From Sumerlaeia bacterium (GTDB lineage: Bacteria > Sumerlaeota > Sumerlaeia > SLMS01 > JAHLLQ01): 64,000 nucleotides of DNA. The notes below the pieces were generated by a model. That model was not told where the DNA came from, ran no database searches, and saw only the letters and a list, made by a program, of their open reading frames with translations. A program made the position numbers and the translations under genes. Positions 1 through 35,069 of this stretch are shown piece after piece. The stretch is from the NCBI GenBank assembly GCA_040219255.1, contig JAVJSW010000035.1, positions 1 through 64,000 on the forward strand, read 5' to 3'. The first letter of the stretch is position 1. Each line of letters begins with the position of its first letter.

Positions 1-140
1 CAACGCGCGACTGGCAAAAGCCGGATTGCGCAGCCTGACCGGCAGGTACCTGATGCTCAGAGGAAACGAAACCGCCGGATGCGACATCGCACGTCCGGTG
101 GTGTGAGAGGGGGGCAGGGCGACCTACCCCCCTACTCGAT
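1..140 (+). mobile_element. Group II intron (class IIC), 3' end: domains V and VI
   Basis: 71-102 ACCGCCGGA-TGCG-ACAT-CGCA-CG-TCCGGTGGT folds as a short domain V with CGC triad and CG bulge. It is followed by a domain VI hairpin (GAGAGGGGGGCAGG GCGA CCTACCCCCCT-A-CTC) with a bulged A and the canonical AT terminus at 139-140. Confidence 0.9.
2..106 (+). CDS. Group II intron reverse transcriptase/maturase, C-terminal tail (5'-truncated by the window)
   Basis: Open frame NARLAKAGLRSLTGRYLMLRG... resembles the C-terminus of IIC intron-encoded proteins; stop at 104-106, reading through domain V. Confidence 0.7.
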   Translation, partial: NARLAKAGLRSLTGRYLMLRGNETAGCDIARPVV

Positions 141-2549: not shown

Positions 2550-2583
2550 CTCTGTGCCATCCGTGACTCGGTGGCGATTTCCT
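2550..2583 (-). repeat. Solitary arm of the family-C repeat
   Basis: CTCTGTGCCATCCGTGACTCGGTGGCGATTTCCT matches the reverse complement of 20254-20287 at 30 of 34 positions. Confidence 0.7.
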
Positions 2584-14613: not shown

Positions 14614-15966
14614 ATGTTTCGTAAAGTCTTAATCGCAAATCGTGGCGAAATCGCCGTGCGGATCATTCGCGCCTGCCGCGAAATGGGCATCAAGAGCGTG
14701 GCCGTCTATAGCGAGGCGGACCGCGACAGCCTGCACGTGCACATGGCCGACGAGGCTCTTTGTATCGGTCCACCTCCCGGCTCCGAGTCCTATCTGAACG
14801 TCGCCCGCATCATCAGCGCCGCGGAAGTCACCGACGCCGACGCCATCCACCCGGGCTATGGGTTTCTGGCGGAGAACGCGGACTTCGCGGAAATCTGCGC
14901 CGAGTGCAACATCACCTTTATCGGCCCCAGCCCGGAAGCCATCCGCATGATGGGCGACAAAGGCGTCGCCAAGCAAACCGCCAGCAAGTCGAACTGCCCG
15001 ACGGTGCCAGGCAGCGACGGGGCCATCGGCGACCGCAAGAAGGCGCGCAAACTGGCCAACGAAATCGGCTTCCCCGTGATGATCAAGGCCGTGGCCGGCG
15101 GCGGCGGGCGCGGAATGCGCTTCGTCCCGTCGGACGCGGAATTCGACAAGCTGTTCGATACCGCCCGCGCGGAAGCGGGCGCGGCCTTCGGCAACGCCTC
15201 CGTTTACATCGAAAAAGCCATCATCGAACCCAAGCACATCGAGGTCCAGATCCTGGCCGACGGCCACGGCAACGTGGCGCACCTGGGCGAGCGCGATTGC
15301 TCGGTGCAGCGCCGGCACCAGAAACTGCTGGAGGAAGCCCCCAGCGCCGTTGTGGACGAGGACCTGCGCATCGCCATGGGCGAGGCGGCGGTGAGCTTGG
15401 CCAGAGGCGTGAACTATCAGGGGGCGGGGACCATCGAGTACCTGCTCGACAAGGAGCGGAAGAACTTCTACTTCATCGAAATGAACACCCGCGTTCAGGT
15501 CGAGCACCCCGTGACCGAGTTGGTGACGGACATCGACATTGTGAAGGAACAGATCGCGGTGGCGGCGGGGGAGACGCTCTCGTTCCGCCAGAGCGATGTA
15601 CGAATCCACGGCCACAGCATCGAGTGCCGCGTGAACGCCGAGGACCCGGCGCGCAACTTCATGCCGAGCCCCGGCAAGCTGATCGACTATGTGCCCGCCG
15701 GTGGCCCCGGCGTGCGAGTGGACAGCGCCTGCTATCCGGGCTATACGATTCCGCCGTTCTACGATTCGATGGTGGCGAAGTTGATCGTGCACGACAAGAA
15801 CCGCGACATGGCCATCGCCCGCATGCAGCGTGCCCTGGACGAGTTCGTGGTCGAAGGTATCAAGACCACGATTCCGTTCTTCAAGGATCTGCTGAAAACC
15901 GACCTGTTCCGCAGCGGCGACTTCGGCACGAACTTCCTGGATTTGTGGAAGTGGAATCCGAAGTGA
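14614..15966 (+). CDS. accC: Biotin carboxylase
   Basis: [60 protein letters not shown]. Confidence 0.97.
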
Positions 15967-15971
15967 TTTTT

Positions 15972-16141
15972 ACCACGGAGACGCGGAGGCACGGAGAATT
16001 GGGATGAGGTCAAATTGGCGAAGACATGCCTTGCTGAAGTTCCTAAACTTTTAGGAACTTCAGCGAAATATTCGAGAGCTTCTCAAGAAGCTTCTCCCCT
16101 TCTTCGCCAACCACGTCTTCGTGTCTCCGTGCCTCCGTGGT
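15972..16141 (+). mobile_element. Gene-less inverted-repeat element, family B (MITE/REPIN-like)
   Basis: Left arm ACCACGGAGACGCGGAGGCACGGAGA (25/26 identical to 25546-25571); right arm TCTTCGTGTCTCCGTGCCTCCGTGGT; internal perfect palindrome at 16033-16064. Confidence 0.8.
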
Positions 16142-16223
16142 GAACCCTCCAGAAACCCTTGGCTTTCCGGCCACGCACCGTTAACCTTCGAACTTTCCGC
16201 CATCATTCCTCCCGGAGGCGCCC

Positions 16224-16781
16224 ATGGAACCCATGACCACTGTTCACGATGAAGATCAGGACGATGCCTATGGCACGCCGTTCGACACGCAGTACATCAT
16301 CGAGCAGGAAGGCCGCATCGAAGTCGGCGACGATGTGATCGCGCGGATCGCGGGCATCGCCTCGACCGAGGTGACGGGCGTGACGCTCGACAGTAAGTTC
16401 TCGCTGGCGGACCTGATCGGCCGCAAAGGCGAGCCGGTCAAGGGCATCGTGGTCGAACGCATCCCGGAAGAAAACGCCGTCCACATCCACTGCACGGTGC
16501 GCATCGAATACGGGCAAGACATGTACGAAACGGCCGTCCGGTTCCGCCACCATATCCGCAGCACCATCGAGAAGATGACCCGCCTGATCGTGAAGGGCGT
16601 GGACATCAAGATCGTGGGCATCACGCTGGCGGAGAAGGAAGAGCGGCTGGAGAAGGTTTCCACCGACAAACGATTGGAAGCGGACAAGAAACCGGAAGCC
16701 CTGCTCGGCCCTGTCCAGGCCGCGACGCCGGAGACGGAATCGGCCGTGGAAGATGATGTCGACGAAAAGCCGGAAAAGTAA
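16224..16781 (+). CDS. Asp23/Gls24 family envelope-stress protein
   Basis: G.IEV.DDVIARIAGIA..EV.GV, KGI.V, EYG, IEKMT.L.V..VDI.I.G; typical position after accBC. Confidence 0.88.
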   Translation: MEPMTTVHDEDQDDAYGTPFDTQYIIEQEGRIEVGDDVIARIAGIASTEVTGVTLDSKFSLADLIGRKGEPVKGIVVERIPEENAVHIHCTVRIEYGQDMYETAVRFRHHIRSTIEKMTRLIVKGVDIKIVGITLAEKEERLEKVSTDKRLEADKKPEALLGPVQAATPETESAVEDDVDEKPEK

Positions 16782-16791
16782 CGGCCACGGC

Positions 16792-17307
16792 GTGGGTACC
16801 GAGCATAAGTTTCTGAGCGATTACAACGCCGCCCGGGCCTGGGCAGGCGACCGCCGGGCCGGCGGCCAGCGCGTCGTTTTCACCAATGGCGTGTTCGATT
16901 TGCTGCACAATGGGCATCTGGATTCGTTGCGGCGGGCGCGGGCCGAGGGCGATTGGCTGATTGTGGCGCTGAACAGCGACGCGGCGGTGAAGCGCCTGAA
17001 GGGCGAGGGCCGGCCGGTTCTCGCGGAGGGGCAGCGGGCGCGGCTGCTGGGGGCGCTGGATTGCGTGGACGCGGTGGTGCTGTTTCACGAGGACACGCCT
17101 CGGGAAATCATCGAAGCGGTGGAGCCGGATGTGCTGGTCAAAGGCGGGCATTATACGATCCCGGAAATCGTGGGGCACGATTTTGTGCTTGAACGCGGGG
17201 GCCGAGTGCTGAGTCTTCCCCTGCTGCCGGGCTATTCGACGACGGATTTGGTGGCGCGGATCAAAGAACGCTTCGCCCCGGAATCCGTTGCCCCGCCCAC
17301 GGCCTGA
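16792..17307 (+). CDS. rfaE2: D-glycero-beta-D-manno-heptose 1-phosphate adenylyltransferase (RfaE domain II)
   Basis: VFTNGVFDLLHNGH, LNSD..V.RLKG..RP, F.EDTP, LVKGG.Y, YSTT. Confidence 0.92.
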   Translation: MGTEHKFLSDYNAARAWAGDRRAGGQRVVFTNGVFDLLHNGHLDSLRRARAEGDWLIVALNSDAAVKRLKGEGRPVLAEGQRARLLGALDCVDAVVLFHEDTPREIIEAVEPDVLVKGGHYTIPEIVGHDFVLERGGRVLSLPLLPGYSTTDLVARIKERFAPESVAPPTA

Positions 17308-17347
17308 CGCATTAGATTTTCCAAAACCTCTGGAAGGACCCCCTGCC

Positions 17348-17575
17348 ATGGCAGACGACGCCTCGATGGCTTTCCCCGATATTCAAAAGGACGCCCAGGT
17401 TCACCATCCGACTTTCGGGATGGGCAAGGTGCTGCAACGCACGGGCAAGGATGAGAAGACGGCCAAGGCCATCATCAAGTTCCGCGAGGAGGGCGAGAAG
17501 AAACTGGCTCTGCAGTTCGCCGACCTGACGGTGGACAAGGTGGACGAGGACGAGGCGGAAGGCGCGGCGCAGTAA
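17348..17575 (+). CDS. Small stand-alone PcrA/UvrD C-terminal Tudor-like protein
   Basis: VHHPTFGMGKV...IKF...GEKKL...FA.L matches the UvrD/PcrA CTD pattern; stop overlaps the gatC start. Confidence 0.7.
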   Translation: MADDASMAFPDIQKDAQVHHPTFGMGKVLQRTGKDEKTAKAIIKFREEGEKKLALQFADLTVDKVDEDEAEGAAQ

Positions 17576-17880
17576 TGGAGAAACTCGATCGCGTCGAAGC
17601 CATCGACAAAGACCGCGTGGCCCACGTGGCACTGCTGTCGCGCCTGGCGCTGACGGACGAGGAAATCGAGCAGTTCGCCGGTGAGTTGACAAAAGTCGTC
17701 GGTCACCTGAACAAGCTGGCCGAACTCGACCTCGACGATGTGCCGATGACGAGCCACGCCATCCCCATGAGCAACGTCTTCCGCCCCGACGCCGCCCGCC
17801 CCGGGCTGCCAACCGCGGAAGCTCTGGCCAACGCGCCGGAGCAAGAGGACGACTGTTTCAAGGTTCCTCAGATTATTTAG
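17575..17880 (+). CDS. gatC: Glu/Asp-tRNA amidotransferase subunit C
   Basis: VAHVALLSRLAL, L.ELD...V, NVFR.D, LANAP....FKVP.II. Confidence 0.93.
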   Translation: MEKLDRVEAIDKDRVAHVALLSRLALTDEEIEQFAGELTKVVGHLNKLAELDLDDVPMTSHAIPMSNVFRPDAARPGLPTAEALANAPEQEDDCFKVPQII

Positions 17881-17908
17881 TTCGGTACAAAATCCGAAGG
17901 AATTCCCC

Positions 17909-19387
17909 ATGTCTTTGAAAACCGCACGCGATCTGGCCGCTGCTTTGGCGGCGGGCGAGACAACGTCCCGCGAGGTGACGGAGAAGTATCTCGCCGCCAT
18001 CGAATCGCTCAATCCGACGTTGAACGCGTACATCACCACGCTGGCCGACGAGGCTTTGGCGGCGGCGGAGGCCAGCGATGGGCGCCGCAAGACGGGGCAG
18101 ACGCTGTCGCCCCTGGACGGTGTGCCGATCGCTATCAAGGACAACATCTGCACCCGGGGCGTGAAGACGACCTGCGCGAGCAAAATGCTCGAGGAGTTCC
18201 GCCCGCCCTATAACGCCACGGTGGTGACGAAGCTCGAAGCCTCTGGCCTCATCAACCTCGGCAAGGTCAACATGGACGAGTTCGCGATGGGCTCCTCGAC
18301 CGAGCACAGCCACGTGGGGCCTTCGCGGAATCCGTGGAATCCGAATTTTGTGCCGGGCGGTTCGTCCGGTGGTTCGGCGGTTGCGGTGGCAGCCGGCATG
18401 GCGCCCTGGAGCCTGGGCAGCGACACCGGCGGTTCGATCCGCCAGCCCGCTTCGTTCTGCGGCATCGTCGGGCTCAAGCCCACCTATGGCCGGGTAAGCC
18501 GCTACGGCCTGGTGGCATTCGCGTCGTCGCTGGATCAGATTGGGCCGCTGAGCGTGGATGTGCAGGACGCGGCGCTGCTGCTGGAAGTGATCGCCGGCCA
18601 CGACGACCGCGATTCCACCAGCAGTTCGCAGCCCACGGAGAAATACACCGAAGCGCTGGTGGGCGCCAAGGCGCTGGACGGTCTGAAGGTTGCCCGGCCG
18701 GTGGAGTTTTTCGAGACCGAAGGCATCGACCCGGAAGTCTCCGCCGCGTGCGAGAAGGCGCTGCAGACCATGAAGGACGCCGGGGCGACCATCGTGGACG
18801 TGAAAATGCCCCACGCCGAGGAGTACTCCGTTTCGACCTACTACGTTCTGGCGACGGCGGAAGCGTCGTCGAACCTGGCGCGGTACGATGGCGCGCACTA
18901 CGGCTATCGGGAACCGGGGACGCAGAACATCGTCGAAATGTTCTCGAAAACGCGGGCCGCGGGTTTTGGCGCCGAGGTCAAGCGCCGCATCATGCTCGGC
19001 ACGTTCGTGCTCTCGGCGGAGACCTTCGATGCCTACTACCGCCGCGCGGCGAAGGCCCGGACGCTGATCCAGAAGGATTACGCGGAGGCTTTGGAGAAGG
19101 CGGACGTGATTTTCGCGCCAACGGCTCCGAGCCCGGCCTTCAAGTTCGGCGATAAGACGGCCGATCCGCTGACGATGTATCTGTCGGATATCTTCACGCT
19201 GTCGCTGAATCTGGCGGGGTACTGCGGTATTTCGCTGCCGATTGGGCATTCGGAGGGGGGGCTGCCGATCGGAGCTCAGCTCTTTGGCGGCGCGTTCCAG
19301 GAATCGAAATTGCTGGCCTCCGCCCATGGGCTGGAAGAAGCCCTCGGCATCGCCAACCGGCGTGCCGCCACCCTCGCCGCCGTCTGA
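17909..19387 (+). CDS. gatA: Glu/Asp-tRNA amidotransferase subunit A
   Basis: KDNI, NMDEFAMGSSTE, GGSSGGSA, GSDTGGSIRQPA, SSNLARYDG, EVKRRIMLG. Confidence 0.97.
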   Translation: MSLKTARDLAAALAAGETTSREVTEKYLAAIESLNPTLNAYITTLADEALAAAEASDGRRKTGQTLSPLDGVPIAIKDNICTRGVKTTCASKMLEEFRPPYNATVVTKLEASGLINLGKVNMDEFAMGSSTEHSHVGPSRNPWNPNFVPGGSSGGSAVAVAAGMAPWSLGSDTGGSIRQPASFCGIVGLKPTYGRVSRYGLVAFASSLDQIGPLSVDVQDAALLLEVIAGHDDRDSTSSSQPTEKYTEALVGAKALDGLKVARPVEFFETEGIDPEVSAACEKALQTMKDAGATIVDVKMPHAEEYSVSTYYVLATAEASSNLARYDGAHYGYREPGTQNIVEMFSKTRAAGFGAEVKRRIMLGTFVLSAETFDAYYRRAAKARTLIQKDYAEALEKADVIFAPTAPSPAFKFGDKTADPLTMYLSDIFTLSLNLAGYCGISLPIGHSEGGLPIGAQLFGGAFQESKLLASAHGLEEALGIANRRAATLAAV

Positions 19388-19396
19388 TTTCGCTTC

Positions 19397-20212
19397 GTGG
19401 CTATTTACTATTACGTCAATCTGAATTGTCCGCCGCGTGAGCAACTCGGCGAGGAACCGCTCTTCGAAGGGGTTCGTGCCGCCGTGATGGCGCGGGAAAT
19501 CCGCGCGTCCTTTGTGGCCAAGTACGGCCCCGATGTGAAGCCGGAGCAGATGCGCTACCGCCAGCGCTTCACCACGCCCACCGGCGAAGAAGAATCCCGA
19601 GAACGGACCGTCGCCGACTTGCAGGACGACGCCGCCCTTCTCGAACCCCTCGCTCCTCATTGCAGCGGCTGTCTCGCCAGTATCACCGGCCACGCCTACG
19701 GCTGCTTCGGTTCGGTGTCGCTGCCGATTTCCGAGAAGGCCGAGCGGTGGCTGCTCTCGCGCATTCCCAAGCCGGGAACCAAGGCCGGAGAGTTCTATCG
19801 CGAAACCGCCATGGAGCGCTATGGCGGGCATGAAAACCTCGCCAACTGGCGCAAGGCGACGTTCCTCGAGTCGCCCAAACGCCTCGCCCGTCACGACATG
19901 GGCGATGGCGATCCGGTGACCAGCGATCAGTTGCTCCACGCCATGTTCCTGGTGGGCGACATCGCGCCCGCCCACGCCCTGGCGCTGCTGCTGTTCACCC
20001 AGGCCATCGTGGCCGACGACAACTCGACGGACAAGGCGCTGGAGGTCATCGAGCAGGTCGAGGCCACCGGTTCCAACACCGGCGTCTCCCAACTCGGTTT
20101 CTCTCTCATACCGGAAGAGGACGACGACCGTTCGATCCTGGACTTGAAGCTGTTCCTGGCGGGATGCTTCCGGGCGTTTTCCTTCGAGGTTCCGCTGGCG
20201 GTCTGGCTGTGA
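19397..20212 (+). CDS. Hypothetical protein with Cys cluster (C..CxxC..C)
   Basis: 271-aa ORF 9 nt after gatA with host-like codon usage; no family recognised. Confidence 0.7.
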   Translation: MAIYYYVNLNCPPREQLGEEPLFEGVRAAVMAREIRASFVAKYGPDVKPEQMRYRQRFTTPTGEEESRERTVADLQDDAALLEPLAPHCSGCLASITGHAYGCFGSVSLPISEKAERWLLSRIPKPGTKAGEFYRETAMERYGGHENLANWRKATFLESPKRLARHDMGDGDPVTSDQLLHAMFLVGDIAPAHALALLLFTQAIVADDNSTDKALEVIEQVEATGSNTGVSQLGFSLIPEEDDDRSILDLKLFLAGCFRAFSFEVPLAVWL

Positions 20213-20261
20213 TTGATGAGTGCGGATCGGCGGGGGGGCGTTCCTGGTCCTTAAGGAAATC

Positions 20262-20520
20262 ACCACAGAGTCACAGAGGGCACAGAGAGTGTTGTATTCA
20301 GAGGATTTATCAGGAGCATGGGGAAGGGGTCGTGGTGTTTGGGGGGATCGCGAGGCGACCACGGATTTTTTTTGTGTCCCCAGATGTGACGCAGGAATCC
20401 GAGAGGGTTGAACGACATCTGTGAATTGCGGGAAGAAAGGCTTCTCAACCGCAGGTGGCGTGGTTTGTGTTCGCCTTTTGCAATCTCTGTGAAAACTCCG
20501 TCCTCTGAGTGCTCTGTGGT
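20262..20520 (+). mobile_element. Gene-less inverted-repeat element, family C
   Basis: Left ACCACAGAGTCACAGAGGGCACAGAGA (3x CACAGAG); right TCTCTGTG...CTCTGAGTGCTCTGTGGT; AT-richer interior. Confidence 0.7.
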
Positions 20521-20582
20521 TGAATGCTCGATTCGGAGCGGTCCTGACGATATCGGGCTTGCAAATAGTTTCGTCATAGCTC

Positions 20583-20610
20583 TTGAGTCGTGCGCTGATT
20601 GTGGTACCAT
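20583..20610 (+). promoter_or_regulatory. Possible sigma-70 promoter for the aminotransferase operon
   Basis: TTGAGT-16 nt-TACCAT with a TG extended -10. Confidence 0.35.
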
Positions 20611-20658
20611 GCTAATGAGAACGAATACCCGACTCGTTCGCCGACTTTGTTGGTGGGA

Positions 20659-22323
20659 GTGACGGCCTTGCCCTACGATTTCCATTACGATCCCAAATTG
20701 AGTGCGATCACCCACGGGGCCCGGCTCCGCGCGCCTCTCTATCCCGACCCGGAAATGCCGATGGAGGATGTCGCTCCGCATGAGCAGGGCATTCCCGGTT
20801 CGCCGCGCAACGCGCTGTTCTATCAGGATCTGGTGCCGCTGCCGATGGCTTCGCACGGGGATGGGATCTATATTTACGACGAGCAGGGGCGCCGCTACCT
20901 GGACGGGTGCTCGGGGGCGATCTGCGCGAACCTGGGCCATGGCAACAAGCGGATCGCCGCCGTCGCGGCGGAGCAGGCGGGCAAAATCGCTTTCGCCTAT
21001 CGCACCCAGTTCGAGAGCCGGCCAGCGAACGAACTCGCCGACATGCTGGTGCGTCTGGCGCCTCCCGGGCTGAACCGCGTGTTCTTCGTCAACTCCGGTT
21101 CGGAATCGGTGGAGGCGGCGATCAAGCTGGCGCGCCAGTATTGGTGGTCGGTTGGTAAGCAAGGCAAGCACATGATCATCGCGCGGCGCCCGTCCTATCA
21201 CGGGGCGACGCTCGGGGCCTTGTCCGCCACGGCCTATGCGCCGCTGAACATTCCCTACCGGCCGATGTCGCTGAACTTCCCGAAGATCAGCGCGCCGTAT
21301 TGCTATCACTGTCCGCTGAACAAGGAATACCCGAGCTGCGAGATGGCCTGCGCGCGGGAACTGGAGCGCGCCATCCGCGTCCACGGGCCGGACAACATCG
21401 CGGCCTTTATCACCGAGCCCATTGGCGGTGCCAGCACCGGCGGTGCGGTGCCCCCGCCGGAGTGGTTCCCGATGGTGGCGGAGATCTGTAAGGAGTATAA
21501 CATCCTGCTGATCGTGGACGACGTGCTGACTGGCTGCGGGCGCACGGGTACGTTCTATGGTTTCGAGCATTGGGGCGTGACGCCGGACATTGTCGCACTG
21601 AGCAAGGGCCTCGGCGCGGGCTACACGCCGATCGGCGCCACGGTCGCCACCGACACCGTGGTTCAGCCGGTGATGGACAGCGGCGGCTTCATGCACGGCC
21701 ACACCTACGCGGGCAATCCGCTCTCGACAGCCATCGCGCGCGAGGTGTTGAAGATCACGCTGGAAGAAGGCCTGGTGGAGAACGCCGGCGCGATGGGCGT
21801 GGTGCTGCACGAGGGGCTGCACGAATTGATGGCGAAGTACCCGATCATCGGCGACGTGCGGGGCCGGGGTTTGCTGGCGGGCATTGAATTCGTCCGCGAC
21901 CGGGCGAAGCGCGAGCCGTTCCCGGCGCATTGGAACGTGGGCCGGGAAATCACACAGATCGCCCGCGAGCGCGGCCTGCTGATTTATCCGCGCCGTTCGC
22001 TGTACGGTCTTTCCGGCGACCACGTCTTGCTTGCCCCGCCGCTGATTATCAAGGAGGCAGGGATCGAGGAGATGCTGATGCTGTTCGAGCAATCGCTCGA
22101 GGAGTTGATGCCGCTCCTGGACAAGCACTACGAGCAGGACATCGCCGCTGAGGAAGCCTATCGCAACGAGAAGCGCTACGAGCTGGAGGACGAAATCCCC
22201 GCCTACGCGCTCGGCGATATTGAAGGCGTCCAAAGCGACCCGGAAGCCAACGTGACCTGGCAGATGCGCGAGGGCGAAACCGCCCATCCGGAAGATTTGG
22301 TGGAAGACCCGGAGATCCTGTAA
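20659..22323 (+). CDS. Class III PLP aminotransferase (YodT-like); start uncertain (20659-20761)
   Basis: YLDGCSGA...LGH, SGSESVE.A.KLARQY, SYHG.T, EPIGG, DDVLTG.GRTG, SKGLG.GY.P, GHTY.GNP. Confidence 0.92.
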   Translation: MTALPYDFHYDPKLSAITHGARLRAPLYPDPEMPMEDVAPHEQGIPGSPRNALFYQDLVPLPMASHGDGIYIYDEQGRRYLDGCSGAICANLGHGNKRIAAVAAEQAGKIAFAYRTQFESRPANELADMLVRLAPPGLNRVFFVNSGSESVEAAIKLARQYWWSVGKQGKHMIIARRPSYHGATLGALSATAYAPLNIPYRPMSLNFPKISAPYCYHCPLNKEYPSCEMACARELERAIRVHGPDNIAAFITEPIGGASTGGAVPPPEWFPMVAEICKEYNILLIVDDVLTGCGRTGTFYGFEHWGVTPDIVALSKGLGAGYTPIGATVATDTVVQPVMDSGGFMHGHTYAGNPLSTAIAREVLKITLEEGLVENAGAMGVVLHEGLHELMAKYPIIGDVRGRGLLAGIEFVRDRAKREPFPAHWNVGREITQIARERGLLIYPRRSLYGLSGDHVLLAPPLIIKEAGIEEMLMLFEQSLEELMPLLDKHYEQDIAAEEAYRNEKRYELEDEIPAYALGDIEGVQSDPEANVTWQMREGETAHPEDLVEDPEIL

Positions 22324-22350
22324 CCCCAACTGTTAGAAGCCCCGGCACCT

Positions 22351-23049
22351 ATGTCGAAAGTCAGCACCGTCTCCGGCGCCCTGCGCGCCGCCGTCAAGAG
22401 CGGCGACACGATCCTGGTGGGGGGGTTCGGCCGGGGCGGCGTGCCCTTTTCCTGCACGGAATTCCTGGCCGATCACCCCGATGAATTCCGCGATCTGACC
22501 CTCGTGAAGAACGACGCCAACGAACCCGGCCTGGGCATCGGCGCCATGTTCCGTAATCCGGGCCAGGTGAAGAAGCTGATTTCGACCCACATCGGTCTGA
22601 ACCCGGAATTCATCGGCCAGATGAACGCCAAGGAAATCGCCTGCGAGCTGATTCCCCAGGGGATTTTCGCCGAGAAGCTGCGTGCGGGAGGCGCCGGAAT
22701 TCCAGCCTTCCTGCACGACATCGGCATGGGCACGATCGTGGCCGAGGGCAAGCGGACGGTGGATTTCGACGGCCGGCCATGGATTCTGGAGAGCGCCTTG
22801 CGTGGCGATGTGGGGCTGTTGTGCGCCGACATGGCGGACGAGAAAGGCAACGCGTGGTGGCGCGGCACGAACCGCAACATGAACGTGGTAATGGGCATGG
22901 CCGCGCGGACGGTGATCGTGGAAGCCAAGCAGATCGTGCCGGTCGGCACCCTGCGCCCCGAAGACGTGCACCTGCCCGGCGTCTGCGTCACCGCCGTGGT
23001 GCCGGCGGGACCGAGGCGGCACTTACAGAAATTGGCCGCCGATGAATAG
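22351..23049 (+). CDS. CoA-transferase subunit A (YodS/AtoD-like)
   Basis: ILVGGFG..G.P, STHIGLNP, PQG..AEKLRAGGAGIP, AD..GN. Confidence 0.92.
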   Translation: MSKVSTVSGALRAAVKSGDTILVGGFGRGGVPFSCTEFLADHPDEFRDLTLVKNDANEPGLGIGAMFRNPGQVKKLISTHIGLNPEFIGQMNAKEIACELIPQGIFAEKLRAGGAGIPAFLHDIGMGTIVAEGKRTVDFDGRPWILESALRGDVGLLCADMADEKGNAWWRGTNRNMNVVMGMAARTVIVEAKQIVPVGTLRPEDVHLPGVCVTAVVPAGPRRHLQKLAADE

Positions 23050-23123
23050 GATCAATAGGATCAAGCGGCGCCAACGACCTTCGACAAGAAGACATCCCAT
23101 TCATCCCATCCATCTGCGGCTAA
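23032..23123 (+). mobile_element. Gene-less 92-bp inverted-repeat element, family A
   Basis: Left TTGGCCGCCGATGAATAGGATCAATAGGAT; right ATCCCATTCATCCCATCCATCTGCGGCTAA; same termini as 23787-24225. Confidence 0.82.
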
Positions 23124-23128
23124 CTCAA

Positions 23129-23800
23129 ATGACTCCTGAAGAACGTCTCCTGATCGAACGCGCGGCCCGGGAAATCGAGCCCGGTATGGTGGTGAATCTG
23201 GGCATTGGCCTGCCGACGAAAATCCCCGCCGTGTTGCCCGCCGGGTTCGATGTCACGTTTCACAGCGAGAATGGCTTCGCGGGGCTGGGGCCGCCGCTGG
23301 AGGGCGGGACGCCGGACAATGACGTGATCGATGCGGGAGGCCGCGCGGTGACGCTGGAACCGGGCGCGGCGTGTTTTGACTCCGTCACTAGTTTCTCCCT
23401 GGTGCGGGGCGGCAAGGTCGATCTGGCCATTCTCGGTGCCTTCGAAGTCAGCGTGGCCGGCGACCTGGCCAACTGGATGATCCCCGGCAAACTGACCCCC
23501 GGCATGGGCGGCGGGATGGAACTGGCCCAGAAAGCCCGCCGGGTTCTGGTGGTGAGCCGCCACCTGGACAAGCACGGGCGGGGCAAACTGGTGGACGTCT
23601 GCTCGCTGCCCCTGACGGCGGCGGGTTGCGTCAGCACGCTGGTGACGGAGCGGGCGGTGTTTCGCCGGGAGAAGGGCGGCCGCATGCGGCTGGTGAGCGT
23701 GGCGCCGGGGCTGAGCGTGGAAGACGCGCGGGAGGGCATGCCGGAGGGCCTGGAGGCCGAGGGGGCGTTGGAGGCGTGGGAGGGGGTTGGCCGCAGATGA
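23129..23800 (+). CDS. CoA-transferase subunit B (YodR/AtoA-like)
   Basis: VNLGIGLPT, SENG (catalytic Glu), GDLANW.IPG...GMGG.M.L, C.LPLT. Confidence 0.93.
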   Translation: MTPEERLLIERAAREIEPGMVVNLGIGLPTKIPAVLPAGFDVTFHSENGFAGLGPPLEGGTPDNDVIDAGGRAVTLEPGAACFDSVTSFSLVRGGKVDLAILGAFEVSVAGDLANWMIPGKLTPGMGGGMELAQKARRVLVVSRHLDKHGRGKLVDVCSLPLTAAGCVSTLVTERAVFRREKGGRMRLVSVAPGLSVEDAREGMPEGLEAEGALEAWEGVGRR

Positions 23801-24225
23801 ATGCCGATGAATACAGATTGAAAATCGATGAGCTGACCTATCGAATCAATGGCTGCATCTATGAGGTGGCGAATGTCTTGGGTCATGGGTTCTTGGAAAA
23901 GGTCTATGAGAATGCGCTTGCCTGTGAACTCAGGAATCAGAAGTTTAGGGTAGAGCAGCAGAAACCTCTGCCCGTGCTTTACAAAGGAAATATGGTTGGC
24001 GATTATTTTGCTGACCTGCTTGTCGAAAATACTGTCTTGATCGAGCTCAAGTCAATTACCACCAGTTTCCAACCTGTACATCTGGCGCAATGCATGAATT
24101 ACTTGCGCGCAACAAACCTGCACGTCTGCCTGCTCGTCAATTTTGGCAAACCAAAGGTTGAAATCAAACGTGTCGTGCGAAATCTCTAACTCCTAATCCT
24201 ATTCATCCCATTCATCTGCGGCTAA
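23787..24225 (+). mobile_element. GxxExxY cassette enclosed by family-A inverted repeats
   Basis: Left TTGGCCGCAGATGAATGCCGATGAATACAGATT; right AATCCTATTCATCCCATTCATCTGCGGCTAA; the enclosed gene is AT-richer than its flanks. Confidence 0.8.
23797..24189 (+). CDS. GxxExxY protein (PD-(D/E)xK nuclease superfamily)
   Basis: LGHGFLEKVYENAL, ADLLVE..V.IELK, Q..NYL.AT......NFG. Confidence 0.95.
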   Translation: MNADEYRLKIDELTYRINGCIYEVANVLGHGFLEKVYENALACELRNQKFRVEQQKPLPVLYKGNMVGDYFADLLVENTVLIELKSITTSFQPVHLAQCMNYLRATNLHVCLLVNFGKPKVEIKRVVRNL

Positions 24226-24231
24226 AAAATC

Positions 24232-25521
24232 ATGAATCACCTCCCCCCCGATTTCCCCCAAGCCCTCTCCGCCCGCCGTGATTGGGCCATCTCGAACCTG
24301 GCCCGGCTGACCGAGGAACCGACGCTTCTCGGCAATGAAGCCTCCGGCCAGGACGTCGTCGCTGAACTCTACGAAGCCGTCGGGCTCGATGTCGAGATGA
24401 TCGACGTGGACCCGGATGTGTTGGCGTCGAAGCCGGGGTGGTCGCCGGTGGATTGGTCGTATGAGGGGCGCCCTTGTGTGGCTGGGACGCATGAGCCGGG
24501 CGGTTCGCCGGAGGGGCGGTCGCTGGTGTTCAACAGCCACATTGACGTGGTCAGTCCGGAGCCGGTGCAGCTCTGGACGACGCATCCGTTCGAGGCGGAA
24601 ATCTTCGACGGCGAGGACGGCCGGCCGTGGATGCGCGGGCGCGGCGCGGGCGACATGAAGGCGGGGACGCTGGCGTATCTGTGGGCGCTGGGGGCGTTGC
24701 GCGATGCGGGTCTGGAGCCGGCCAGCAAGGTGATCTGTCAATCGCCCATCGAGGAAGAATGCACGGGCAATGGGGCGTTGGCGCTCTGCGAGGCCGGATA
24801 CCTGGGCGACGCGTGCCTGATCCCCGAGCCCTTCGCGGAGACCATCCTCACCGCCCAGGTGGGCGTGCTCTGGTTCGATGTGACGGTTCTGGGCCGCACG
24901 ACGCACGTGCTGGGCGCCGGGCGGGGTGTGAACGCGATCGAGAAAACGTTCCCGATTATCACGGCGCTGCGGGCCCTGGAGGAAGAAATCAACGCTTCGA
25001 TTCCGGCGCTCTACGAAGGCATCGAGCACCCGATCAACCTGAACGTCGGCATCATCGACGGCGGCGATTGGGGCAGTACGGTGGCGGGCGAGTGCACGAC
25101 GCGTTTCCGCCTGGGCCTGTTCCCCGGCGAGAAAATCCCGGACCTGAAGCGCCGCGTCGAGCAGCGCGTGGCCGAGGTGGCCGCGGCGGATCCATGGCTG
25201 AAGAACTTCCCGCCGACGGTGAACTACGTCGGCTTTCACGCGGAGGGCTGCACCTTCGACGGCGCGAGCGATTTCGGCCGCGACCTCGCAGCGATCCATC
25301 GCGATCTGCGCGGTTCGGCGGCGGCGGAACTGCGCTGCACGGCGACGACCGACGTGCGGTTTTTTAACCTGTACTATGATGTGCCGGCGACGTGCTATGG
25401 CCCCATCGCGAAGGACATCCACGGCGTGGACGAGTGCGTGAGCCTGGACAGCATGAGCCGCGTGGCAGAGGTGATGGCGCACCTGATCGCGAGGTGGTGC
25501 GGGGTTCGGAAGCGGGGGTGA
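24232..25521 (+). CDS. ArgE/DapE-family M20 deacylase (YodQ-like)
   Basis: FNSHIDVV, GRGAGDMKAG, EEECTGNG, IPEP, TTD.R, YGP....IH..DE. Confidence 0.93.
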   Translation: MNHLPPDFPQALSARRDWAISNLARLTEEPTLLGNEASGQDVVAELYEAVGLDVEMIDVDPDVLASKPGWSPVDWSYEGRPCVAGTHEPGGSPEGRSLVFNSHIDVVSPEPVQLWTTHPFEAEIFDGEDGRPWMRGRGAGDMKAGTLAYLWALGALRDAGLEPASKVICQSPIEEECTGNGALALCEAGYLGDACLIPEPFAETILTAQVGVLWFDVTVLGRTTHVLGAGRGVNAIEKTFPIITALRALEEEINASIPALYEGIEHPINLNVGIIDGGDWGSTVAGECTTRFRLGLFPGEKIPDLKRRVEQRVAEVAAADPWLKNFPPTVNYVGFHAEGCTFDGASDFGRDLAAIHRDLRGSAAAELRCTATTDVRFFNLYYDVPATCYGPIAKDIHGVDECVSLDSMSRVAEVMAHLIARWCGVRKRG

Positions 25522-25545
25522 TGGGGTAGGGGATTTTCTCAATTA

Positions 25546-25973
25546 ACCACGGAGACACGGAGGCACGGAGATGTTATTGGCCGAGGATGTAACCAATCAA
25601 GTCATTGGAGCTGCGATTGAGGTCCATCGCGCTTTGGGCCCGGGCTTGCTTGAGTCGATATACGAGGAGTGCTTGAGCCATGAACTCAAGTTGCGGGGGC
25701 TCGGTTTTCAGCGCCAGGTACCCTTGCCGATCCGCTACAAAGATTTAGAGCTTCCAGATTCCTACCGCATGGACCTTGTCGTCGAAAACCTGGTAGTTAT
25801 CGAACTTAAATCGGTGATCAAGCTTGAACCAATTCACAAGGCGCAGCTCCTGACATACTTAAAGTTGTCGCGCTTGCCTGTTGGGCTGCTACTTAACTTC
25901 AATACACCTGTCCTAAAGGACGGCCTTGTGCGCCTCGTTCTCTAGCCTCTCCGTGCCTCCGTGTCTCCGTGGT
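25546..25973 (+). mobile_element. GxxExxY cassette enclosed by a perfect 26-bp inverted repeat (family B)
   Basis: 25546-25571 ACCACGGAGACACGGAGGCACGGAGA is the exact reverse complement of 25948-25973. Confidence 0.88.
25571..25945 (+). CDS. GxxExxY protein (PD-(D/E)xK nuclease superfamily)
   Basis: VIGAAIEVHRALGPGLLESIYEECL, RMDLVVE..V.IELKSV, AQLLTYLKL....GLLLNFN. Confidence 0.96.
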   Translation: MLLAEDVTNQVIGAAIEVHRALGPGLLESIYEECLSHELKLRGLGFQRQVPLPIRYKDLELPDSYRMDLVVENLVVIELKSVIKLEPIHKAQLLTYLKLSRLPVGLLLNFNTPVLKDGLVRLVL

Positions 25974-26020
25974 AAAAAGATATCCCCCGGGGGCGTCCAT
26001 CTCGCGGTTTCAAACTCCTT

Positions 26021-27793
26021 CTATTCCCCACCCGCCTCCATCGGCGAACCGTCGCCGGTGGTTTTGACGCGGGCTTTCAGGATGCCGAGTTCCTCGCGGA
26101 GTTTTTCGATGCGTTTGCGCTGGCCGTCGAGGCGGTCGCGTTCGGTGCGGACGAAGCGGGTGTAGGGGCCGATGGCGTCGCGGATGCGATCGACGGAGCG
26201 GTCGATTTCGCGCTCGAATTCGGACTTCAGCGCCGTGGCCACTTTGCGCCGCAGATCGCTGACCTGCTTGCGGAAGGCCTGCTTCATTTCCTTGCGTTTT
26301 TTCGGGATGATGTAGAGCCCGCCGACCGTCAGCAGCACACCCAGGGCCACGCCGGTCACGTCGAGCCACACCAGTTGGGTGGCCATGATCAGCGCCGCGC
26401 CCACACCGACGCCGCCGACCATGCCCAGCAGCGTCGTGGCGAAGGTGGTCTGGATCATGCCCGCCAGGCGGTCCGACTCCTTGTTGCGGTCGTAGGACTC
26501 GACGGTGCGCCGCGTCTTGCCAATGACATCGTCCAGGAGGCGGGCCCGTTCGCCGGCGAATTCGCGGTTGATGTTGCCGATCATGCGGTCCTGGTATCGT
26601 TGGCGGCGCTGCTCGACATGCTGCATCACGCTGGTCCACTGGCGCAGGTCCGCCGCCACGATCCAGTCCAGAATCTCGTTCACGCGGCGCTCGACTTCCG
26701 ACGCCGTGTCGGCCACCACTTCGTGCTCGAAGTTGTCGCGGATCAGCTCTTTGCTCATCAGTTCTTTGATGCGGGTGATGCGGACGTGTTCTTCGATGAA
26801 GTCGAGGCCGCGCTTTTCGAATTCGAGGAGCACGTTGTCCACCTTGGCCAGGCGGTATCCGAAATCGCGGCGCATGTCGTCGCGGTACGTGTTCAGTTGG
26901 CCGTCGATGTCTTCGATGGAGCGGATGTCGTCCTTGAGCACGGCGACGCGTTCGGTGGCGCCTTCGACGGCTTGTTCGCTGATTTGGATGCCGACGCCGA
27001 GGGGGCTGAGGAGTTTGAGGCGGATGCGTTCGCCTTGGTCCAGGGTGTCGCGGATGAAGTGCTCGAGGTCGTGAAAGCCGGACGCCTTGATGCGTTCGTC
27101 GTCCGGGCCGGCGCCGTCGAGCTTGGCCTTGAGGGCGCGCTTGGCCGACACGGGGAAGATGGGTGGCTCGGATTCGAGGGTCTGGCTGGCGCCGCTGCGC
27201 AGGAACTGAAGGACCGGTTCGCGCTCGTCCTCGTCCAGGAGATCGGCCTTGTTCATGACGACCACGACGCGTTTGCCCCACTTGCGGATGAGGTCGAGAA
27301 AGGTGCGTTCGGTTTCCGTGTAGGCCTGGACGGCGCTCGTGACAAAGAGAACGAGGTCGCTGCGGGGGACGAATTCGCGGGTGATCTTTTCGTGTTCGCG
27401 GACGATGGCGTTCGTGCCCGGAGTGTCCACGATAGCCAGCTCGCGCAGGATTTCCACGGGCGCCTGAATCGCGTCGGTGTGTTCGTCGATAGGTTCGACT
27501 TTCTCCGCGTCGCCGTAGCGCAGGATGCCGACGCGCTGGGTGGTGGGAGTGGCGCCTTCTTTCAGGAGCCGCTTGCCAACGAGAGCGTTGATAAAGGTGG
27601 ACTTGCCGGAATTGAACTCGCCCACGACGACCAGCAGAAAGAGGTCGTCGAGCCCGCTCAGCGCATCCGCCAAGGTTTCGCGCACGCTTTCTTCCGCTTC
27701 GAACTCCTGAAGCGTCGACTTCAAATCCGACAGGGTGGAACGGGTTTCGTTGAGGAGTGTCAGTTGATGATCGTTGAGAATGCGGGCGAGCAT
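26021..27793 (-). CDS. Bacterial dynamin-like GTPase
   Basis: GEFNSGKS (G1), PTT (G2), DTPG (G3), NKAD (G4); helical stalk and C-terminal hydrophobic paddle. Confidence 0.9.
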   Translation of the reverse strand: MLARILNDHQLTLLNETRSTLSDLKSTLQEFEAEESVRETLADALSGLDDLFLLVVVGEFNSGKSTFINALVGKRLLKEGATPTTQRVGILRYGDAEKVEPIDEHTDAIQAPVEILRELAIVDTPGTNAIVREHEKITREFVPRSDLVLFVTSAVQAYTETERTFLDLIRKWGKRVVVVMNKADLLDEDEREPVLQFLRSGASQTLESEPPIFPVSAKRALKAKLDGAGPDDERIKASGFHDLEHFIRDTLDQGERIRLKLLSPLGVGIQISEQAVEGATERVAVLKDDIRSIEDIDGQLNTYRDDMRRDFGYRLAKVDNVLLEFEKRGLDFIEEHVRITRIKELMSKELIRDNFEHEVVADTASEVERRVNEILDWIVAADLRQWTSVMQHVEQRRQRYQDRMIGNINREFAGERARLLDDVIGKTRRTVESYDRNKESDRLAGMIQTTFATTLLGMVGGVGVGAALIMATQLVWLDVTGVALGVLLTVGGLYIIPKKRKEMKQAFRKQVSDLRRKVATALKSEFEREIDRSVDRIRDAIGPYTRFVRTERDRLDGQRKRIEKLREELGILKARVKTTGDGSPMEAGGE

Positions 27794-27941
27794 AGGGGCG
27801 GTGTCTTCGGGTCGCGGGAATCGGGCACAGCCATGTAGCCCGCGAGGCGGGGAATCGGGCAACCCCCTTTTGAGTCTTCGGCTTGGGCGGAGGAGGAATC
27901 TGGAACCGCGGAGGGACGCGGATCGGCTTGGATTCGGCTCC

Positions 27942-34889: not shown

Positions 34890-35069
34890 AACCACAGAGT
34901 CTGATTGGTGTGAAGGTCTGACGGTCACAAAGAATACCACGCCTGCAAACGGATATTCAGAAGAATGAGCCGAGGAGCAAAAGGCTGCCAAAGGCGTAAT
35001 CCCGGAGAGCCGTTTTCCTTCCTCTGCGTAACCCCAAAGCACTGTGCTCAACGCAGCATCCCTGTGGTT
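34890..35069 (-). mobile_element. Degenerate gene-less inverted-repeat element, family C-like
   Basis: AACCACAGAG (34890) and CCCTGTGGTT (35060-35069) bracket the AT-richer intergenic gap; the coaX stop codon overlaps the terminus. Confidence 0.55.

Follow-up and report, generated by a model that had tools for sequence, protein, structure and literature searches.

Heptamer-repeat arms around GxxExxY genes and at scattered gene-less sites point to a widespread selfish DNA element

The window analysed here is a 64,000-nucleotide stretch of a Sumerlaeia bacterium contig (JAVJSW010000035.1, assembly GCA_040219255.1). It contains two small GxxExxY genes, each tightly enclosed, as the original prediction had described, by inverted repeats of about three short tandem units (Table 1). 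The resulting cassettes, A1 and B1, are discrete inserts of 434-439 bp whose only open reading frame encodes a GxxExxY protein of 124-130 amino acids, in keeping with the proposal of a minimal element that carries no DDE, HUH or recombinase enzyme. The elements are flanked by protein-coding genes (scoB, an M20 peptidase gene and accC), and an rRNA search of positions 15800-26200 returned no match. Both cassettes are poor in GC, at 0.46-0.52 against 0.67-0.69 in their neighbours (A1, 0.456; B1, 0.523 versus 0.668 for the adjacent gene).

Table 1. Cassettes, their genes and related repeat elements in the window
Feature	Position	Strand	Description
Single arm	2550..2573	-	three units, partnerless
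B0, gene-less, CACGGAG-type arms	15969..16144		starts 2 nt past the accC stop codon
C1, gene-less	20259..20520		clean three-unit CACAGAG left arm; right arm decayed, with an indel
A0, gene-less, GATGAAT-type arms	23032..23123		between scoA and scoB
Cassette A1, GATGAAT-type arms	23787..24225	+	439 bp insert
GxxExxY gene of A1	23797..24189	+	130 aa; PF13366 match
Cassette B1 (left arm, GxxExxY gene, right arm)	25543..25976	+	434 bp insert, inverted repeat
GxxExxY gene of B1	25571..25945	+	124 aa; G25-E28-Y31, D68, E78, K80
Possible remnant	34890..35069		just one unit per end

The 44-nt arms of B1 (25543-25586 and 25933-25976) are 84% complementary, and a 26-nt core within them (25546-25571 and 25948-25973), composed of three CACGGAG units, is 100% complementary. 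Folded as RNA, B1 is closed by a 26-bp stem (z = -6.4 against shuffled sequences), and the ends of A1 close a whole 445-nt stretch with a stem of about 25 bp (z = -4.7 against shuffles). The arms also provide translation signals: a stop for the gene upstream and, for the nuclease, either its ribosome site or its start. In B1, a GGAGG ribosome site lies 7 nt ahead of the ATG, within the left arm; in A1, the nuclease ATG and the TGA of the preceding gene share bases as ATGA, the upstream ORF ending at 23800. The stop codons of scoA (23047-23049, in the left arm of A0) and scoB both fall within arms.

Gene-less copies with matching ends had been proposed for both cassettes, and the match is good for B0 and partial for A0. 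B0 lies downstream of the accC ORF (end at 15966) and has arms at 15969-16002 and 16111-16144 that are 79% complementary across a gap of 108 nt and match the B1 arms at 93% and 86% identity. Its interior holds two more small hairpins, and a search of that interior for a GxxExxY remnant found none. The right ends of A0 (23094-23123) and A1 share 93% identity, whereas the A0 arms pair weakly: the repeat tool joins only 12 nt in one register, and by reading, the pairing of the outer ends is in a slipped register. Among the elements assigned to a third family, C, the left arm of C1 stands up well, while its decayed right arm leaves no ungapped inverted repeat of at least 12 nt that the repeat tool could find, and the sites at 2550-2573 and 34890-35069 show one arm and one unit per end, respectively.

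The placement of GxxExxY in the PD-(D/E)xK superfamily is confirmed by profile matches, a conserved D...ExK triad and the restriction-endonuclease-like fold of the structural model. The B1 protein scores 149.3 bits against PF13366 and 153.4 bits against TIGR04256, and the A1 protein, with which it shares 42% identity, scores 137.9 and 143 bits; both ORFs exceed both curated cut-offs (22 and 35 bits, respectively). Across 48 sequences, G25 and K80 are invariant, and E28, Y31, D68 and E78 are conserved in at least 90%. An AF2 model of the B1 protein (pLDDT 96.5) finds only PD-(D/E)xK nucleases among its top structural matches (Z up to 7.9), including Cas4 SSO0001 at Z 7.8 and Hjc at Z 6.7; these matches reflect the shared fold, and none exceeds fold-level background. 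On our reading, the protein is a minimal PD-(D/E)xK enzyme whose D-(x9)-E-x-K site is intact. A dimer of the protein could not be supported. The family is very large, with 24,592 clusters at 50% identity for E up to 0.001 and 8,557 for E up to 1e-10; it is rare on plasmids (8/72,556 records), none of 50,697 phage records contains it, and defence models gave no match except a weak one to Cas4 (E 0.0027). A survey of PD-(D/E)xK proteins lists the function of GxxExxY as "Unknown" (PMC3424549), the sole functional note found.

Genome-wide counts show that the arms extend far beyond the window. This genome contains 176 matches to a three-unit CRCNRAK pattern, compared with 9 in a reversed-sequence control, and a public tool gives 177 against 9. 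The heptad consensus, CRCNGAK, is degenerate, with about three copies per arm at a spacing of 8-10 nt. Four of the five PF13366 genes in the genome are armed, with arms directly adjoining the ORF. Gene-less relatives are far more numerous than genes (about 170 arms versus 4 armed genes), and there are 31 strict pairs among the 176 arms. The layout is comparable to that of RAYT/REPIN. Gene-less copies enclose 50-230 nt of unrelated sequence, and none of the interiors checked shows any remnant of a GxxExxY gene. One sub-family comprises at least nine similar copies, with an identity of 85-90% as judged by eye in the alignment, which shows that it has multiplied recently in this genome.

The division of the arms into separate cognate families A, B and C is not supported. 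Their units vary around a single degenerate word, mixed-type and nested arms occur (one element is concentric, A-type inside B-type), and CACAGAG, the commonest gene-less arm type, has no matching gene in this assembly. Comparison of the repeats with the protein tree, suggested as a check of that division, leads to the same result. Mapped onto an 80-protein tree, the exact unit word is unclustered, requiring 24 changes against 25.2 +/- 1.2 when shuffled (118/500 shuffles as low), while host phylum requires 27 against 41.0 +/- 1.3. Because the unit word departs from the protein tree, cognate pairing at the sub-family level is unsupported.

Across genomes, the arms and the gene go together, and the enclosure is general. 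Flanking inverted repeats scoring at least 14 are present at 47/80 GxxExxY loci from 15 named phyla and in 4/80 mismatched flank pairs. Within the phylum, CRCNRAK arms lie on both sides of 13/28 GxxExxY loci and 0/30 S23p loci, so that arm class is tied to cargo. Arm number likewise co-varies with gene number, as predicted: rho is 0.73 over 75 genomes that are related and not independent, and in the same 75 related genomes the partial correlation of CRCNRAK arm number is 0.66 with GxxExxY given S23p and 0.26 with S23p. The median is 3 arms in the 13 of these related genomes without GxxExxY and 63.5 in the remainder; six genomes with S23p and without GxxExxY hold 1-25 arms.

Comparison with syntenic relatives shows that the cassette is an insertion relative to kin. 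A1 has no counterpart between scoB and the M20 peptidase gene in 8/8 of them, where the spacer measures 11-96 nt against 431 nt here, and in 6/8 relatives the scoA/scoB junction varies between an overlap of 4 nt and a spacer of 22 nt. Of the filled and empty sites that were predicted, the absence of the insert from the orthologous junction therefore holds, while an empty site at nucleotide resolution was not found and no target duplication is seen. In a search for 9-mer duplications, 44 cassettes and 31 simple gene-less elements gave none, with distributions equal to control. Neighbouring genes mostly share one orientation: those upstream lie on the same strand in 34 cases and on the opposite strand in 5 (38 ambiguous), and those downstream in 36 and 5 (32 ambiguous). 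A 9-bp target duplication is the kind that DDE-type elements make, and a 328-bp gene-less, arm-bearing sub-family of this genome has one, matching 9/9 in 5/17 copies and 8/9 in 4/17, against 0/272 and 3/272 in control pairs. Therefore, at least some arm-bearing DNA moves by other means.

Together, the scattered heptamer arms and the boxed genes point to a widespread selfish DNA element. The reading we favour, tentatively and at a little under an even chance, is that A1 and B1 are gene-bearing members of a selfish hairpin cassette family whose arms are acted on by the encoded nuclease. The CRCNGAK arrays would be putative binding or cutting sites of this enzyme, whose targets may include its own arms and, in trans, the many gene-less copies, which it would thereby spread or maintain. 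Insertion would land at, or survive only at, gene junctions, with no long target duplication. Since the arms carry a stop for the upstream gene together with a Shine-Dalgarno site or ATG, the host operon would stay intact and the nuclease would be expressed from read-through transcripts. We infer that the protein recognises the arms and drives their spread, and likewise that mobilisation is the work of the nuclease; PD-(D/E)xK nucleases cut, and we know of no joining step. A broader and more doubtful possibility is that an undescribed class of mobile DNA has GxxExxY proteins as its enzymes. Its members would be transposase-free hairpin cassettes with arms of CRCNGAK heptads read by the nuclease, spreading along with many gene-less satellites to operon junctions in most bacterial phyla. 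With S23p cassettes, this class could explain two long-standing puzzles, the excess of intergenic heptamer repeats and the origin of ORF-bearing rRNA intervening sequences (IVS).

The gene could instead be a passenger, although we consider this rather unlikely. The hairpin arms would then be a mobile or structural unit moved by an unlinked transposase, by host recombination between arms or by insertion at hairpin tips, and GxxExxY, perhaps a structure-specific nuclease, a toxin-like gene or a defence gene, would ride in the loop as S23p does in its own hairpins and in 23S rRNA IVS. S23p, an unrelated four-helix-bundle protein and not a nuclease, does lie between tandem-unit inverted repeats of other words at 17/30 loci, and therefore the architecture needs no nuclease. 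The duplications of the 328-bp sub-family, the A-type arms nested inside B-type, the inside-out arms at 4/28 GxxExxY loci and a unit word unlinked to the protein tree all favour such cargo, and so do two genomes that lack the gene and have 25 arms apiece (G045 and the closed genome G066, in which the arms look well kept). Set against this is the phylum-wide agreement of arm class with cargo, and arm number follows GxxExxY far more than S23p. Moreover, the 9-bp duplication of the 328-bp family is missing from the cassettes and from simple gene-less elements, the two Y1_Tnp (RAYT-type) genes of the genome (C68 and C56) fail to explain the arms, one of them being flanked by a different palindrome, and defence models give no match beyond the weak one to Cas4.

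Under an RNA-level role, which appears improbable, the arms would act mainly in the transcript, the closing stem serving as an RNase III site or a stabiliser through which the nuclease mRNA is released or controlled. The gene-less copies would be REP-like elements for processing or stability within operons, and an old spread would have left the elements mostly fixed. The strong closing stems of A1 and B1 agree with this, as do the Shine-Dalgarno, start and stop signals within the arms, the position of elements inside operons in the orientation of their neighbours, and a protein tree that follows phylum; size and design also resemble the 428-444-nt IVS of Coxiella as the available portion of PMC4990558 gives them. 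A stem requires complementarity alone, yet one degenerate word recurs with the gene in 15 named phyla, S23p has other words, the inserts are lineage-specific relative to kin, and the copies that are alike at about 85-90% (by eye) indicate recent rather than old spread. That the repeats are low-complexity sequence or mis-assembly unconnected to the genes has a negligible probability. The assembly is a draft of 83 contigs, and several contig ends carry long perfect palindromes resembling assembly artefacts, but the reversed control yields few arms, B0, the left end of B1 and the right end of A1 also lie on independent contigs of public runs, and the same packaging is present in closed genomes and many independent assemblies.

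Linking GxxExxY to a defined DNA or RNA word offers a direct and cheap function assay for this family. If the nuclease drives the spread, the cassettes would join REP/RAYT and IS/MITE as a further autonomous/non-autonomous repeat system, one based on another enzyme fold, and the annotation of intergenic repeats and small ORFs would be affected in many phyla. Arms that rewrite gene ends, including stop codons and ribosome sites, also matter for gene calling and operon expression.

A literature search found no published description of such hairpin cassettes, and several known systems share some of their features. IS/MITE pairs, such as the Correia type, are small and intergenic, have terminal inverted repeats and occur in autonomous and non-autonomous forms. 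The cassettes share these repeats, the small size, the intergenic sites and the forms with and without a gene, but they have no transposase of a known class and no 9-mer target duplication; the separate 328-bp sub-family is the one that resembles a classical MITE. A small PD-(D/E)xK core is also common to homing endonucleases, Hjc and Cas4. Homing does not disperse an element to many unrelated sites, and unlike free-standing PD-(D/E)xK homing endonucleases, the cassettes are scattered over many such sites.

Two further systems come closer in design. The available portion of PMC4990558 describes ORF-bearing 23S rRNA IVS in Coxiella burnetii and Leptospira that have lower GC than the host and whose origin and means of movement are unknown; in Coxiella burnetii these are 428-444 nt long, with a 28-bp stem cut by RNase III. 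By that account, the cassettes resemble them in their length of about 430 nt, long terminal inverted-repeat stem, single small loop ORF and low GC. Unlike the IVS, they lie between protein genes and outside an rRNA helix, encode a nuclease fold instead of the four-helix-bundle S23p, have many gene-less copies and bear CRCNGAK heptad arms, which occur at none of the phylum's 30 S23p loci. In the available portions of PMC3116915 and PMC3733652, REP/RAYT systems consist of REPINs and their Y1 HUH transposase, and the latter text defines the REP repeat as a palindrome of 20-40 bp with a GTAG or CGTC tag. As far as that portion of PMC3733652 goes, both systems place a low-copy enzyme gene between inverted copies of a short repeat that is intergenic, far more numerous than the gene and mostly arranged in inverted pairs able to form hairpins, with no target duplication evident. 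They differ in the enzyme, which here has a PD-(D/E)xK fold matching PF13366 only, whereas RAYT is HUH/Y1, and in the arms, which here consist of about three tandem CRCNGAK heptads instead of one tagged palindrome. The unrelated interiors of the gene-less copies and the location of the genome's own Y1 genes elsewhere, one with its different palindrome, further distinguish the heptad-arm cassettes from REP/RAYT.

Two ORFs of the window, which lies on contig C35 of a 5.35-Mb draft assembly of 83 contigs (GC 0.636), exceed the cut-offs of both PF13366 (PDDEXK_3) and TIGR04256 (GxxExxY) by a wide margin, and their products, small proteins of a PD-(D/E)xK nuclease family, are 42% identical. Both genes had been noted as boxed by inverted repeats of short tandem units, and this is borne out: the arm core of cassette B1 pairs perfectly, and the ends of cassette A1 close as RNA. 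RNA folding closes each entire element through its ends (B1, z = -6.4; A1, z = -4.7), a result that 0 of 100 shuffles matched for either element. GC is lower in the cassettes (0.46-0.52) than in their neighbours (0.67-0.69). The gene-less partners noted before are both present, B0 clearly and A0 with the weaker pairing listed in the table, while the three sites put forward as related family-C elements come down to one decayed element, one lone arm and one doubtful remnant. Rfam searches of the elements returned no family at E up to 0.1, and the only match in the window at gathering scores is a piece of group II intron near its start.

Features of the window and of the host and related genomes (positions without a contig are those of the window; C numbers are contigs, L numbers loci)
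Feature	Location	Description
Cassette B1	25543-25976	arms 44 nt, 84% complementary; 26-nt core of three CACGGAG units, perfect pairing
GxxExxY ORF of B1	25571-25945	
Cassette A1	23787-24225	arms of GATGAAT-type units, period about 10 nt
GxxExxY ORF of A1	23797-24189	
Gene-less element B0	15969-16144	
Gene-less element A0	23032-23123	pairing weak in repeat tool
"Family C" site	20259-20520	decayed element
"Family C" site	2550-2573	lone arm
"Family C" site	34890-35069	doubtful remnant
GTPase-like gene	within 25976-27955	large, opposite strand
Group II intron domains	70-140 (+)	RF00029, 43.3 bits (gathering score 40)
Fifth GxxExxY paralogue	C49:77714-78049	no arms
CRISPR-like array	C49:1-820	contig start; repeat of about 23-36 nt, spacing about 66 nt
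328-bp family, L241	C68:22994-23321	
328-bp family, L242	C77:91696-92024	
328-bp family, L243	C22:21294-21596	
Y1 (RAYT-type) gene	C56:126182-126939	
Y1 (RAYT-type) gene	C68:109316-109603	
Hairpin elements, L276	genome G066, C1:2506152-2509175	CGCGAAG-type, well kept; about a dozen in the whole genome

The arms are abundant in the host genome, where three consecutive CRCNRAK units occur 176 times against 9 in the reversed sequence. The consensus CRCNGAK rests on this roughly 20-fold excess and on individual arm sequences, as well as on word counts made with a search pattern in which positions 1 and 6 were fixed as C and A. Of the five PF13366 genes in the genome, four are directly abutted by arms, whose word differs from gene to gene (CACGGAG, GATGAAT, CGCNGAG and GCAAAG). 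The fifth has no arms; it is the weakest match (68 bits), has a GC of 0.60, near that of the genome, and could be an ancient copy or a domesticated one. Its contig also opens with a CRISPR-like run of repeats. Several contig ends (C1 1-293, C12 2-350, C14 1-242, and on C38, C48, C53, C65 and C74) carry palindromes of 94-139 nt that are perfect or nearly so and are most likely assembly artefacts.

The pairing of nuclease gene and repeat is real and general. Among 80 loci found with the B1 protein, one genome per species (75 with a named phylum, from 15 phyla), flank inverted repeats scoring at least 14 occur at 47, compared with 4 of 80 mismatched flank pairs, a control that is inflated because words are common to different loci. 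In the window's own phylum such repeats accompany 18 of 28 usable loci. Some loci carry inside-out arms, whose outer ends face the gene (L222, L223, L230, L237, and also L014, L025, L033 and L041), as expected if the gene is part of a cassette array or has a separate hairpin element on each side.

Arm number also follows gene number, as the original prediction required. Across 75 genomes of the phylum the correlation with PF13366 genes reaches rho 0.73, a figure that overstates the support because these genomes are kin, and the median is 3 arms in the 13 genomes lacking such a gene against 63.5 in the remainder. Two genomes depart from this trend: G045 and G066, the latter closed, lack a GxxExxY gene but contain 25 arms each, which in G066 look well kept. 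Locus L276 lies in G066, which has no PF13366 match but contains about a dozen CGCGAAG-type hairpin elements clustered in a few regions.

The division into families A, B and C as separate cognate pairs is not supported. Mapped on the 80-protein tree, whose power is limited by few columns and many open forks, the exact unit word needs 24 changes against 25.2 +/- 1.2 when shuffled (118 of 500 shuffles as low), so that it clusters no more than in shuffles. The coarse CAC/CGC class needs 10 against 14.0 +/- 1.3 (3 of 500 shuffles), and host phylum 27 against 41.0 +/- 1.3 (0 of 500). Since close protein pairs carry different words, and positions 2 and 4 often vary among the units of a single arm, the three families look like variants of one degenerate word.

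Translation signals lie within the arms. The stop codon of scoA (23047-23049) lies inside the left arm of A0 and that of scoB (23798-23800) inside the left arm of A1, where the nuclease start overlaps it (ATGA). In B1 the GGAGG of the second unit stands 7 nt ahead of the ATG, and B0 begins 2 nt past the accC stop. Neighbours at the 80 loci mostly read in the same direction: on the upstream side 34 are on the same strand, 5 on the opposite one and 38 ambiguous, and the downstream counts are 36, 5 and 32. The elements therefore occupy operon junctions without breaking operons. Host transcripts are probably the source of nuclease expression.

The best available reading, a tentative one, is that the GxxExxY nuclease and the arms form a repeat-plus-nuclease system. 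A rather unlikely alternative is that the arms are moved by other means and GxxExxY rides as cargo. It draws on S23p, a four-helix-bundle protein without nuclease function found in 53 of 75 genomes of the phylum, though not in the window's own: inverted arrays of short tandem units, with different words, enclose 17 of 30 S23p loci, and therefore the architecture needs no nuclease. In the same genomes, CRCNRAK arms flank 13 of 28 GxxExxY loci and 0 of 30 S23p loci. The word is tied to the protein family, a tie that a bare hairpin would not need and that is read either as the encoded protein recognising the arms or as constrained common descent. Arm counts point the same way, with a partial rho of 0.66 for GxxExxY given S23p and only 0.26 for S23p given GxxExxY, and the six genomes that have S23p without GxxExxY hold 1-25 arms. 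That the arms act mainly in the transcript, a view that the closing of both cassettes as RNA would suit, is improbable.

Comparison with kin shows how the elements lie relative to conserved gene order. Eight relatives retain the order scoA, scoB, M20 peptidase; seven belong to the same family and the eighth to the same order. At the scoB-peptidase junction all eight have no intervening gene and a spacer of 11-96 nt, against 431 nt in the window, and at the scoA-scoB junction, the site of A0, six of the eight show anything from a 4-nt overlap to a 22-nt gap. B1 stands at a synteny break: the M20 peptidase gene is followed by a thiolase gene in the eight relatives, but by B1 and then the GTPase-like gene in the window. 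In two genomes of one genus (loci L097 and L098 of G004 and G009), other tandem-unit repeats, GTGAAGN-like and GAATTAT-like, lie at the scoA-scoB junction and after the M20 peptidase gene. The A0 and B1 junctions are repeated targets of distinct hairpin families. The A1 insert is absent from its junction in all eight relatives. Metagenome contigs searched with the M20 peptidase gave 65% protein identity at best, so they include no close strain and resolve no empty site to the nucleotide. Three public runs of one study, with low-depth contigs, cover B0 and two cassette ends and contain no joint that skips an element; no RNA run is listed among those containing the stretch.

No 9-bp target duplication appears at the cassettes: the flanks of 44 cassettes and 31 simple gene-less elements contain no 9-mer direct repeats above control. 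The gene-less copies, with interiors of 50-230 nt, form sequence families of their own; arms of mixed type occur, and one element has A-type arms nested within B-type arms. Their origin as deletion derivatives was rejected, since tblastn and profile searches of the interiors and the 328-bp family recovered no GxxExxY remnant. The 17 copies of this 328-bp sub-family have a further inverted repeat outside the heptad arms. The sub-family also shows a 9-bp target duplication: 5 copies agree at 9/9 bases and 4 copies at 8/9, whereas 272 control pairs give 0 and 3 such cases. It is therefore a true MITE moved by classical transposition, its transposase not being found in the assembly. Both Y1 genes of the genome lie away from the cassettes. 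The one on C56 has on either side inverted 28-nt palindromes that belong to another repeat family, and RAYT was rejected as the mover on this ground. GC-rich palindromes akin to these occur throughout the genome, so that a separate REP/RAYT system is present.

The AlphaFold2 model of the B1 protein (pLDDT 96.5) resembles PD-(D/E)xK nucleases only, at the level of the shared fold. The best Foldseek match is Cas4 (E 6e-3); in a wide structure search Z reaches 7.9, and Hjc scores 6.7. Residues G25, E28, Y31, D68, E78 and K80 are conserved. Sequence search of solved structures gave nothing under E 0.5, PADLOC a weak Cas4 match only, and PHROGs no match. The family is very large. Plasmids seldom carry it (8 of 72,556 records), and none of 50,697 phage records does. 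The best-scoring relatives in a large library (P0001-P0011) are two-domain GxxExxY proteins of 263-295 aa, which could be genuine fusions or pairs of neighbouring cassettes annotated as a single ORF.

The sole functional note found on GxxExxY is the entry "Unknown" in a PD-(D/E)xK survey (PMC3424549). The literature searched on GxxExxY and PDDEXK_3, outside supplements and subscription journals, names the family in passing and does not describe the repeat pairing; nor do searches on PDDEXK with inverted repeats, REPIN/RAYT of PVC phyla, small nucleases with hairpins, and heptanucleotide repeats. Heptamer repeats between bacterial genes are recorded as unexplained, with no link to a GxxExxY gene in the relevant part of the source (PMC4679880). 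With no known transposase and no 9-bp target duplication, the cassettes are not classical IS/MITE elements. Their layout is that known from REP/RAYT, with a different enzyme fold and a different repeat. The ORF-bearing intervening sequences of 23S rRNA measure 428-444 nt, have a 28-bp stem and are excised by RNase III (PMC4990558); they share the design of the cassettes, while their site, ORF and words differ.
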